From Escherichia coli (GTDB lineage Bacteria; Pseudomonadota; Gammaproteobacteria; Enterobacterales; Enterobacteriaceae): a stretch of 64,000 bases of DNA. Positions 18,212-26,919 of this stretch are shown here, piece after piece. The stretch lies in assembly GCF_003334405.1 (NCBI RefSeq), contig NZ_QOWM01000006.1; one strand, 5' to 3'. The notes under the pieces were generated by a model. The model saw only the letters and a list, made by a program, of their open reading frames with translations. It did not search any database and had not been told where the DNA came from. The position numbers and the translations under genes were made by a program. Each line of letters opens with the position of its first letter. Positions within the stretch are counted from its first letter, which is position 1.

Positions 18212-20563
18212 TCAAAATAGCCCAAGTTGCCCGGTCATAAGTGTAGCAAAATTATCCTCAATAAAAGGGAGTATTCCCTCCGCCACGGGTTGTAGCTGGC
18301 GGGTCAGATAGTGTTCGTAATCCAGTGGTGAACGTTGGTAGTCCAGCGGCTCCGGGCCGTTGGTGGTCCATACGTACTTAATGGTGCCGCGATTCTGATA
18401 TTGCAAGGGGCGACCACGCTTTTGGTTTTCTTCATCGGCAAGGCGAGCGGCGCGTACATGAGGCGGCACATTACGCTGATACTCGCTCAGCGGACGGCGA
18501 AGGCGTTTACGGTAAACCAGTCGCGCATCCAGTTCACCCGCCATCAGTTTGTCGATGGTTTCGCGTACATATTCCTGATATGGCTCGTTGCGGAAGATGC
18601 GCAGGTATAGCTCCTGCTGAAACTGCTGGGCCAGCGGCGTCCAGTCGGTGCGCACGGTTTCCAGCCCTTTAAACACCATCCGCTGCTTGTCGCCCTCCTG
18701 AATCAGTCCGGCATAACGCTTTTTACTGCCGGTATCGGCTCCGCGAATGGTTGGCATCAGAAAACGGCAGAAATGGGTTTCATACTCCAGTTCTAATGCG
18801 CTGGTCAGCCGTTGTTTTTGCAGCGTTTCCGCCCACCAGGCGTTAACGTGCTGCACCAGTGCACGACCGATTTTCGCCGCTTCTTCTTCCGAATGTGCGC
18901 CTTTCAGCCAGACAAACGTTGAGTCGGTATCGCCGTAGATAACGTCGTAGCCCTGTGCTTCAATCAACGCTTTGGTTTGCCGCATGATCTGATGACCACG
19001 CATGGTGATCGACGATGCCAGCCGCGGATCGAAGAAGCGGCAGGCGGTGGTGCCGAGCACGCCATAAAAGGCATTCATGATGATTTTCAGCGCCTGCGAC
19101 AGCGGTTTGTTACCCTGGCGTTTGGCTTCATCGCGCCCGTGCCAGATGTTAGTCACAATCTCCGGCAGGCAATGTTTTTCTCGCGAGAACCAGGCATCGA
19201 GAAAACCTTCGGTACTGTGCTCTGGATCAGGCTGCGCCATGCCTTCCACCAGCCCGACGGGATCAATCAGAAAGGTGCGGATGATCGACGGGTACAGGCT
19301 TTTATAGTCCAGCACCAGCACTGAATCATAAAGCCCTGGCCGTGAATCCATCACGTAGCCGCCAGGGCTGGCGTGCGGCGGCACTTCGCCGAGATTAGGC
19401 GCGACATAACCAGCGCGATGCATTCGCGGAAAATAGAGATGACCAAATGCCGCCACCGAACCGCCGTGTCGGTCCACCGGCAGGCCGTTCACCGTTGCCC
19501 GTTCGAGTAAAAATGGCATGATTTCAGTTTTGTGGAAGATCTGCGTCACCAGCTCGCAATCTTTCAGGTTATAAGTTGCCAGCGCAGGTTTATCTTCGGC
19601 GAAACGGCGGTCAATTTCGTCCATTCGATCCCACGGGTTATCGATAGATTTTCCTTCGCCTAATAGCTCCTGAGCGACAGTTTCCAGCGAGAATGAAGAG
19701 AAATTCCAGAACGCGGATTTCAGCGCCTCGATACCGTCGATAATTAGCCGACCTTTAGCCTGGGCAAAAAAGACGCCGTTTTTAAAGCCGTGCTCGCGCC
19801 ACTCCAGCTCGCTATTATCGCGCCCAAGACGCAGCGGAAGACGGTAACGCTCGGCATGTTTTTGCAGCATTCGCAGATCGAACTGCACCACGTTCCAACC
19901 GATGATCACATCAGGATCGTAGTTGGCAAACCAGGCGTTGAGTTTTTCCAGCAACTGCGGGCGGCTGGCGACGTATTCCAGTTCGAAATCAAGCGAGGAG
20001 GCGTCGCCATTCTCCGGCCCCAGCATATAAACGATGCGCTGCCCGCAGCCTTCCAGGCCGATGCAGTACAGCTCACCGTGGCGGGTGGTTTCAATATCTA
20101 TAGAAACCCACTTGAGCGGCGGACGATAGTCGGGATGCGGTTTCAGACGGGCATTAACGATAGTGCCATTGTGCATATCACCCTCGACCCACACCGGTGA
20201 GGTGATAAACCGCTCCATCAGATAGCGTTCTGGCGGACGCACATCGGCCTCGTAGACGGTAACGCCACCTTCACGCAGGCGCTTTTCGTAATTCATCAAT
20301 TGGCGATGGGCGCGACAGTAAAGGCCATACACCGGCTGGCGGTGAAAATCCTTTAACGCCAGCGGTGTCAGGCGAAAGCCTTGTTCACCCTGCAAAATAT
20401 GCTGAGCGCGGGGAACCTGATCGGCGGGAATAAACGCCACGGACTCTTGCGGTGCAAGCGTAACCTGCAACGGCCCGTTGTCCGTCGCCAGCCAGAAGGA
20501 GACTTCTGTCCCTTGCGGGGTGTCCCGCCAGTGTCGGGTTAAGATAAAACCTGCCTGCGCCAC
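18212..20563 (-). CDS. polB: DNA polymerase II (family B)
   Basis: 783-aa ORF with B-family motifs (YGDTDS); GTG initiation codon. Confidence 0.95.
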
Positions 20564-20582
20564 GCTGAAAATCCATCAAAAA

Positions 20583-20607
20583 ACCAGGCTTGAGTATAGC
20601 CTGGTTT
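20583..20607 (-). terminator. terminator-like hairpin + U6 (candidate araBAD terminator) lying in the polB leader
   Basis: Minus strand aaccaggct-atactca-agcctggtt followed by TTTTTT; 16 nt upstream of polB GTG. Confidence 0.5.
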
Positions 20608-20618
20608 CGTTTGATTGG

Positions 20619-20634
20619 CTGTGGTTTTATACAG
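20619..20634 (-). promoter_or_regulatory. LexA (SOS) box of polB/dinA
   Basis: Minus strand CTGTATAAAACCACAG matches the CTGT-N8-ACAG consensus; sits between araD stop and polB start. Confidence 0.6.
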
Positions 20635-20637
20635 TCA

Positions 20638-21333
20638 TTACTGCCCGTAATATGCCTTCGCGCCATGCTTACGCAGATAGTGTTTATCCAGCAGCGTTTG
20701 CTGCATATCCGGTAACTGCGGCGCTAACTGACGGCAGAATATCCCCATATAAGCGACCTCTTCCAGCACGATGGCGTTATGCACCGCATCTTCGGCATTT
20801 TTGCCCCATGCAAACGGGCCGTGGGAATGGACCAGAACGCCGGGCATTTGCGCTGCATCGATACCCTGTTTTTCAAAGGTTTCTACGATGACGTTACCGG
20901 TTTCCCACTCATATTCGCCGTTGATTTCTGCGTCGGTCATTTTGCGGGTGCAGGGAATGGTGCCGTAGAAATAGTCGGCGTGGGTGGTGCCGGTTGCTGG
21001 AATCGACTGACCCGCCTGCGCCCAGATGGTGGCGTGGCGCGAGTGCGTATGCACAATGCCGCCAATGGAGGGGAATGCCTGATAGAGCAGCCGGTGAGTT
21101 GGCGTGTCGGAGGAGGGCTTTTTCGTACCTTCAACCACTTCACCGGTTTCGATGCTAACCACGACCATATCGTCAGCGGTCATGACGCTGTAATCGACGC
21201 CGGAAGGTTTGATCACAAAGACGCCGCGCTCGCGATCAACGGCGCTGACGTTGCCCCATGTGAGCGTGACCAGGTTGTGTTTTGGCAGCGCCAGGTTGGC
21301 TTCTAATACCTGGCGTTTGAGATCTTCTAACAT
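20638..21333 (-). CDS. araD: L-ribulose-5-phosphate 4-epimerase
   Basis: 231-aa [48 protein letters not shown]... class II aldolase/epimerase. Confidence 0.95.
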
Positions 21334-21347
21334 GTTGACTCCTTCGT

Positions 21348-21530
21348 GCCGGATGCGCTTTGCTTATCCGGCCTACAAAATCGCAGCGTGTAGGCCTGAT
21401 AAGACGCGCCAGCGTCGCATCAGGCGTTGAATGCCGGATGCGCTTTGCTTATCCGGCCTACAAAATCGCAGCGTGTAGGCCAGATAAGACGCGTCAGCGT
21501 CGCATCAGGCGTTACATACCGGATGCGGCT
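21348..21530. repeat. BIME: two tandem ~85-bp units (each a pair of inverted REPs) plus a partial third REP
   Basis: Unit gccggatgcgctttgcttatccggcctacaaaatcgcagcgtgtaggcctgataagacgcgccagcgtcgcatcaggcgtt... repeated at 85-bp period. Confidence 0.75.
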
Positions 21531-21532
21531 AC

Positions 21533-23035
21533 TTAGCGACGAAACCCGTAATACACTTCGTTCCAGCGCAGCGCGTCTTTAAACGCTGGCAGGCGTGTGT
21601 CGTTATCAATCACCGTGATTTCAATGTCGTGCATCTCGGCGAATTGGCGCATATCGTTGAGGTTCAGTGCATGGCTGAAGACGGTATGGTGCGCGCCACC
21701 AGCGAGGATCCACGCTTCGGAAGCAGTTGGCAGATCCGGTTGCGCTTTCCACAGCGCATTCGCCACCGGCAGTTTCGGCAGGGAGTGCGGTGTTTTCACC
21801 GTGTCGATGCAGTTAACCAGTAGACGGTAACGATCGCCGAGATCAATCAAGCTGGCGACAATCGCTGGGCCGGTTTGGGTATTGAAGATCAGGCGGGCAG
21901 GATCGTCCTTACCACCAATACCGAGATGCTGAACGTCGAGGATCGGTTTCTCTTCTGCGGCGATCGACGGGCAGACTTCCAGCATATGGGAGCCGAGCAC
22001 CAGGTCATTACCTTTCTCGAAGTGATAGGTGTAGTCCTCCATAAAGGAGGTGCCGCCCTGCAGACCGGTTGACATCACCTTCATGATGCGAAGCAGGGCG
22101 GCAGTTTTCCAGTCGCCTTCGCCCGCAAAGCCGTAACCCTGCTGCATCAGACGCTGTACGGCCAGACCAGGAAGCTGTTTCAGACCGTGCAAATCTTCAA
22201 AGGTGGTGGTGAACGCGTGGAAGCCACCTTGTTCCAGGAAACGCTTCATCCCCAGCTCAATACGCGCCGCTTCCAGCACGTTCTGTCGTTTTTTGCCGTG
22301 GATTTGTGTGGCAGGCGTCATGGTGTAGCAGCTTTCGTACTCATCGACCAGCGCGTTAACATCGCCGTCGCTGATGGAGTTCACCACCTGCACCAGATCG
22401 CCAACCGCCCAGGTATTGACGGAGAAACCGAACTTGATCTGTGCGGCAACTTTATCGCCATCGGTGACCGCCACTTCACGCATGTTATCGCCAAATCGGC
22501 AGACTTTCAGATGACGGGTATCCTGTTTAGAGACCGCCTGACGCATCCAGGAGCCGATACGCTCATGGGCTTGTTTATCCTGCCAGTGACCGGTAACCAC
22601 GGCATGTTGCTGACGCATACGCGCGCCAATGAAGCCGAACTCGCGACCGCCATGTGCAGTCTGGTTCAGGTTCATAAAGTCCATATCGATACTGTCCCAC
22701 GGCAGCGCCGCGTTGAACTGGGTGTGGAATTGCAGCAACGGTTTGTTGAGCATGGTCAGGCCGTTGATCCACATTTTGGCCGGGGAGAAGGTGTGCAGCC
22801 ACACCACCAGACCAGCGCAACGATCGTCGTAATTCGCGTCGCGGCAAATAGCGGTGATTTCATCCGGCGTGGTGCCCAGCGGTTTCAACACCAGTTTGCA
22901 GGGCAGTTTCGCTTCCGTATTCAGCGCATTAACGACGTGCTCGGCATGTTGGGTGACCTGACGCAGGGTTTCCGGGCCATACAGATGCTGGCTGCCAATG
23001 ACAAACCACACTTCATAATTATCAAAAATCGTCAT
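21533..23035 (-). CDS. araA: L-arabinose isomerase
   Basis: 500-aa product [27 protein letters not shown]...; start trimmed from the 508-aa track ORF. Confidence 0.95.

Positions 23036-26833: not shown

Positions 26834-26919
<86 letters not shown>

Follow-up and report, generated by a model that had tools for sequence, protein, structure and literature searches.

The spacer between araA and araD in the 64,000-nucleotide stretch of Escherichia coli DNA analysed here (the window) is a BIME-2 array of paired Y and inverted Z2 REP sequences, and it contains two 85-bp units where the same array in MG1655 contains three. This difference in unit number is a real, ordinary and already documented polymorphism of a previously studied BIME-2. 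Taking the evidence as a whole, we consider it highly probable that the window carries a natural u1-u2 allele from which the middle unit was lost by slippage or unequal recombination, with hairpins that possibly tune the araBAD mRNA.

Architecture of the araD-araA spacer

Genes on the minus strand of the window are arranged in the order polB-araD-araA-araB, and in the araBAD mRNA araA therefore lies upstream of the array and araD downstream. The coordinates of the two genes place the spacer at 21334..21532 (Table 1) and confirm its length of 199 bp, as given in an earlier note made from the sequence alone. That note had also described two tandem 85-bp units, each with opposed REPs, followed by a partial REP, and this anatomy was recovered by three kinds of search. 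Tandem Repeats Finder reported one array at 21347-21527 with a period of 85, 2.1 copies, 94% matches and a score of 327, and a repeat search returned two 85-nt copies (21347-21431 and 21432-21516) with 95% identity. Pattern searches located Y-type REPs on the plus strand at 21348-21376 and 21433-21461, and Z2-type REPs on the minus strand at 21390-21425 (0 mismatches) and 21475-21510 (2 mismatches), with 0 matches expected from dinucleotide-preserving shuffles of the window. Each unit is thus the sum of a 30-nt Y REP, a 13-nt linker, a 36-nt Z2 REP and a 6-nt S linker.

Table 1. Features of the araD-araA spacer and its flanking genes (window coordinates)
Feature	Position	Strand	Remarks
araD (L-ribulose-5-phosphate 4-epimerase)	20638..21333	-	ORF list and RefSeq annotation of the identical GM4792 sequence
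araD leader, 13 nt	21334..21346	-	mRNA sense CGAAGGAGUCAAC; Shine-Dalgarno AAGGAG at 21339-21344
BIME-2 unit 1, haplotype u1	21347..21431	.	same as first MG1655 unit
Unit 1, Y REP	21347..21376	+	
Unit 1, tail-to-tail linker	21377..21389		
Unit 1, Z2 REP	21390..21425	-	
Unit 1, head-to-head S linker	21426..21431		
BIME-2 unit 2, haplotype u2	21432..21516	.	same as third MG1655 unit
Unit 2, Y REP	21432..21461	+	
Unit 2, linker	21462..21474		
Unit 2, Z2 REP	21475..21510	-	
Unit 2, linker	21511..21516		
Truncated Y REP head, 16 nt	21517..21532	+	TACCGGATGCGGCTAC; abuts araA stop codon
araA (L-arabinose isomerase)	21533..23035	-	ORF list and GM4792 annotation; stop TAA 21533-21535

The two ends of the array are constant. 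An alignment of 17 spacers showed that the 13-nt araD leader is kept in every E. coli allele in which a BIME unit adjoins araD, and the 16-nt tail was the same after the last unit in every allele compared. The nature of this tail as a Y head is plainer in E. albertii and Escherichia sp. MOD1-EC7003, where it begins TGCCGGATGC.

Both REP types in the array are imperfect palindromes of 30-40 nt with a conserved GTAG/CTAC foot. The Y REP, GCCGGATGCGCTTTGCTTATCCGGCCTAC, is present twice, and the Z2 REP, GCCTGATGCGACGCTGGCGCGTCTTATCAGGCCTAC, agrees at 36 of 36 positions in unit 1 with the published Z2 reference sequence of Durrant et al. (PMC11208160), while the second copy has 2 mismatches. The array is entirely extragenic, with the araA stop codon to one side of it and the araD start codon to the other, and its sequence is dispersed: across 5426 complete genomes, a 799-bp query consisting of the allele and its 300-bp flanks matched 15 places in the median genome. 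BIME-2 elements are defined by the combination of y and z2 REPs, by tandem copies and by a short S linker (Ton-Hoang et al. 2012, PMC3333891). Consistent with this definition, the plus strand reads Y(+), 13 nt, Z2(-), 6 nt (GTTGAA), Y(+) and so on, with AAAATCGCAGCGT as the 13-nt tail-to-tail linker, and the unit is present in 2.1 copies here and in 1, 2 or 3 in other E. coli. BIME-2 elements are reported to be bound and cleaved by DNA gyrase (Espeli and Boccard 1997, as cited in PMC3333891). Elsewhere in the window, another Z2-type REP, GCCTGATGCGACGCTTGCCGCGTCTTATCAGGCCTAC, stands alone at 26834-26870 between yabI and thiQ.

In addition, the Rfam model naRNA4 (RF02564) matched the minus strand at 21393..21458, spanning the unit junction in the mRNA sense, with a score of 60.2 bits that is only just above the gathering score of 59.5 (E = 1.7e-10); a weaker, partial match of 31.3 bits covered 21478-21551. 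The naRNA4 model was derived from REP325, the Y-Z2 array between yjdM and yjdN, and in effect it describes any Y-Z2 pair. REP325 and the array in the window share their REP types, the Y-linker-Z2 architecture and an intercistronic position within an operon, but REP325 has six units (12 hairpins) as against two units here, and the Y loop is shorter here. A role for naRNA4 in HU binding and nucleoid organization has been claimed (PMC4550694) and disputed (10.64898/2026.03.23.713779).

The two-unit allele and its origin

In MG1655 (NC_000913.3), araD occupies 65855-66550 and araA 66835-68337, leaving a spacer of 284 bp. The figure given for MG1655 in the earlier note, a spacer of about 284 bp and so one 85-bp unit longer than that of the window, was thus borne out by the annotation and also by alignment of the two sequences, which have identical flanks and a single 85-nt gap of exactly one unit. 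We looked for the same two-unit structure in K-12 and found it absent from MG1655, whose spacer has three units. At the level of haplotypes, the window is u1-u2 while MG1655 and NCTC9087 are u1-u3-u2, so that the middle unit is the one absent from the window. As judged by sequence comparison, u1 and u2 match the first and third units of the MG1655 araD-araA BIME-2 at every base; partial BIMEs from that MG1655 region, oligonucleotides B315 and B316, served as substrates for the transposase TnpA(REP) (PMC3333891). The locus and flanks are likewise the same, and the two arrays differ in that MG1655 has three units and the window two, without u3. Unit u3, which has a C at position 43, differs from u1 by one T-to-C change only, and any register of deletion that removes this single diagnostic base yields the same product, leaving the breakpoint unplaceable.

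The window allele is best read as a deletion, since middle units with C43 occur in diverse lineages and the middle unit is therefore older than the K-12-like haplotype. The opposite polarity, in which two units are ancestral and the three-unit allele of K-12 reflects a recent duplication of u1, would fit the single base that separates u3 from u1, as expected of a young duplicate. We regard this as very improbable because E. coli strains of varied background have three units whose middle members (u4 and u9) are diverged and share the C43 of u3, because three units also occur in Escherichia sp. MOD1-EC7003, a lineage separate at the species level, and because three-unit arrays are the commonest class among the chromosomes sampled (see below).

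If the allele arose by deletion, the most likely route would be replication slippage or unequal recombination between the near-identical 85-bp direct repeats. The loss amounts to one period, no more and no less, between direct repeats that are long and near-perfect, and host replication and recombination readily delete between such repeats without a special enzyme. Strand exchange by TnpA(REP), the REP-associated tyrosine transposase (RAYT, yafM), rather than slippage or homologous recombination, is a possible but unlikely route. TnpA(REP) cleaves and recombines the single-stranded oligonucleotides B315 and B316 from the MG1655 araD-A BIME in vitro, and the authors of that work proposed that such exchange could yield BIME variability and amplification (PMC3333891). 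Yet no C|T cleavage site can be assigned to the breakpoint in the window, and the copy number and distribution of REPs and BIMEs differ only slightly between strains with and without tnpA(REP) (PMC3333891).

Since u1 and u3 are one base apart, they are prone to being collapsed by de Bruijn assemblers, and we also considered that the source of the window might have three units that a short-read assembler reduced to two. The closest flank match, NCTC9087, shows no difference from the window in the 25 kb of right flank and has three units, in keeping with such a collapse, and K-12 substr. GM4792, the only record with a K-12 name among the 26 complete genomes identical to the window over 799 bp, fits a real deletion or a collapse alike. 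Against an artefact, the same two-unit allele is found in all 26 of these genomes, which include a coherent group of related livestock isolates, and further two-unit alleles are present in O157:H7 and in strain 998. The two-unit state therefore clearly exists in nature, and we think it unlikely that the window owes its two units to assembly; loss of the middle unit remains the preferred reading.

The flanking sequences place the allele more closely. The right flank of the window over 25 kb is a perfect match to NCTC9087 (46167 bits, the sole perfect 25-kb match), with about 3 mismatches to MG1655 implied by bit scores. Across the array itself, no perfect 25-kb match was found in complete RefSeq E. 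coli genomes, the best being W444 (46150 bits, about 3 mismatches). The allele with its 300-bp flanks is 100% identical in the 26 complete genomes, which come from varied hosts and laboratories, and isolates from pig, pork and cow formed a group matching the window in a single ungapped piece over 25 kb around the allele, with about 3-4 mismatches implied by bit scores.

At K-12 coordinates, GM4792 (CP011343.2 / NZ_CP011343.2, 66551-66749) has the two-unit allele, which sets it apart from the other K-12-derived records seen; in 19 of these, the match starts at 66902, the +85 offset expected of three units. The two-unit state of GM4792 reflects either loss of a unit in a laboratory lineage or a collapse during assembly. 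The araC gene is intact in the window, whereas the GM4792 annotation gives it an internal stop; the window is accordingly not GM4792, despite the 100% identity over 799 bp at the same K-12 coordinates, and neither is it MG1655.

Unit number in E. coli and related genera

The araA-araD locus was present in all 5426 of the complete E. coli genomes searched, and spacer lengths, taken from RefSeq annotation and from alignments, fell into a small set of classes. One unit gives a spacer of 114 bp (ST131, and JKHS016 by match span), two units give 199 bp (the window, O157:H7 493/89 and strain 998), and three units give 284 bp (MG1655, NCTC9087, FORC_081, ML35, ST540, RM14723 and others). Spacers of 168 or 162 bp, in ST130 and Z1323PEC0010 respectively, combine one unit with a different GC-rich palindrome that we take to be BoxC-like, and in strain 1368KP the array is interrupted by IS621. 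Among 59 evenly spaced chromosomes, rough counts were 6 with one unit, 17 with the BoxC-like element and one unit, 12 with two units, 23 with three units and 1 interrupted by IS621, making three units the commonest class (about 23 of 59). No array of more than three units was seen in these 59 chromosomes or in targeted checks, where 10 of 10 split megablast matches proved to be 284 bp.

Unit number also varied on closely similar backgrounds. Genomes whose 25-kb right flank is near-identical to that of the window (bit scores imply about 0-3 mismatches) include the three-unit genomes NCTC9087, FORC_081, Z1323HEC0011, FJ_Ec_21, NCTC9100, ML35 and MG1655, the two-unit genomes 98-3133 and BA92, and JKHS016 with one unit. 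Near-identical 25-kb haplotypes thus carry 1, 2 or 3 units, which indicates that copy number changes in less time than it takes for about 1 substitution per 10 kb to accumulate. Furthermore, the other two-unit alleles are built of different units, u16-u17 in O157:H7 and u18-u13 in strain 998, indicating that the two-unit state arose more than once. Together, these comparisons show that changes in unit number are recurrent and fast compared with point substitution.

This behaviour agrees with earlier reports that how many tandem BIMEs one locus holds varies among strains (PMC3333891). The polymorphism described among strains for BIME presence or absence and for tandem BIME-2 number (Bachellier et al. 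1997, Genetics 145:551, as cited; Ton-Hoang 2012 Suppl. Fig. S3) is of the same kind; insertion sequences that specifically target REPs are a further shared feature, exemplified by IS621 in 1368KP, and we see no essential difference, the araA-araD array being one more instance. The two-unit allele matters little beyond correct annotation. More broadly, few short sequences in otherwise near-identical E. coli haplotypes change as fast as BIME-2 arrays, which makes these arrays a useful typing marker and a reason for caution with short-read assemblies, and the araA-araD spacer is a hotspot that attracts small palindromic repeats as well as the REP-targeting IS621.

The BoxC-like element, TTTCCCCTCACCCCGGCCCTCTCCCCAAAGGGGCGAGGGGGAAAAC, lies between the araD leader and the single BIME unit, at positions 611-667 of the extracted locus in ST130 and 614-662 in Z1323PEC0010. 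The element together with its junction, at a coverage of at least 80%, was found in 1566 of the 5426 genomes (29%), which supports this class of spacer independently; the element itself is a dispersed repeat, found at 12 places in the median genome.

In 1368KP (NZ_CM173843.1), IS621, an IS110-family element with a bridge-RNA recombinase, is inserted in the second araD-araA BIME unit (extracted-locus 1100-1290). The junction reads ...CGCGTAG|ATACTGTT, splitting the Z2 REP at GTAG|GCC, and matches the published IS621 target site in REPs, ATCAGGCCTAC, which is given as ATCAGGC|CTAC (PMC11208160).

Outside E. coli, the spacer has one unit (114 bp) in E. albertii and three units (284 bp) in Escherichia sp. 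MOD1-EC7003. Salmonella arizonae, Citrobacter, Enterobacter and Buttiauxella have an inverted pair of REP-type palindromes in the araA-araD spacer, and Klebsiella, Kluyvera and Pseudocitrobacter have BoxC-like palindromes there. Among the genera examined, tandem amplification of the 85-bp unit was seen only in Escherichia.

RNA folding and possible effects on araBAD

Folding of the spacer RNA gave a predicted minimum free energy of -97.6 kcal/mol (z = -6.3 against shuffles), with each unit predicted to add about -44 to -48 kcal/mol and with individual hairpins of -21.4 kcal/mol for Z2 and -14.3 kcal/mol for Y. In the araBAD mRNA, transcribed from the minus strand, the stretch from the araA stop codon to the araD Shine-Dalgarno sequence is thus predicted to fold into four REP hairpins rich in GC. 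The araA and araD genes lie on the same strand, and no promoter or intrinsic terminator was predicted in the spacer, with 0 promoter-like sites in 20500-22000; this is the location expected of an mRNA stabilizer or attenuator.

Precedents for such a function come from other operons. BIMEs within polycistronic mRNAs stabilize upstream genes (PMC9023263), and REP325 stabilizes the upstream yjdM and partly terminates transcription before yjdN (bioRxiv 10.64898/2026.03.23.713779). The REP stabilizer between malE and malF (Khemici and Carpousis 2004, as cited in PMC3333891 and PMC9023263) likewise consists of GC-rich REP hairpins on the transcribed strand between co-transcribed genes; the difference is that the araBAD array would be placed in the stabilizer class by analogy. 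On the model of malE-malF and yjdM-REP325-yjdN, the hairpins would block 3'-to-5' exonucleases and so stabilize the araBA segment, and they would partly attenuate transcription into araD. An effect of the array on the stability of araBAD mRNA segments is plausible on these grounds. At REP325, Rho-dependence was seen with the full array alone, arrays of 2-4 hairpins showing none, and the effects of REPs are context-dependent and often absent (10.64898/2026.03.23.713779). We found no study of araBAD mRNA processing at the araA-araD array in the literature searched.

With one unit fewer, the mRNA would have four hairpins in place of six, a difference that might slightly alter the ratio of araA to araD expression. 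If unit number does measurably shift this ratio, the array would provide a simple natural form of tuning within an operon that leaves promoters and coding sequence untouched. A stronger version, in which unit number is a fast-mutating dial for the AraA:AraD ratio that is under selection, more hairpins giving more attenuation or decay of the araD segment, strikes us as quite unlikely. Were it true, selection would arise because too little AraD leads to accumulation of toxic L-ribulose-5-phosphate, and the dial would explain why 1-3 units and none longer occur in the genomes examined, as well as why REP or BoxC-like palindromes are present in this spacer in many of the Enterobacteriaceae examined.

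We also considered whether unit number could act through occlusion of the araD Shine-Dalgarno sequence. Its predicted accessibility was flat, at 0.49-0.54 for 0-3 units, and this mechanism was dropped.

The sole terminator-like site in 20500-22000 is a hairpin with a 10-bp stem at 20581-20607, between polB and araD. It was called on the plus strand, where a T-run follows the stem, and not on the araBAD sense strand; the stem is palindromic on both strands, and the hairpin may mark the end of the araBAD transcript.
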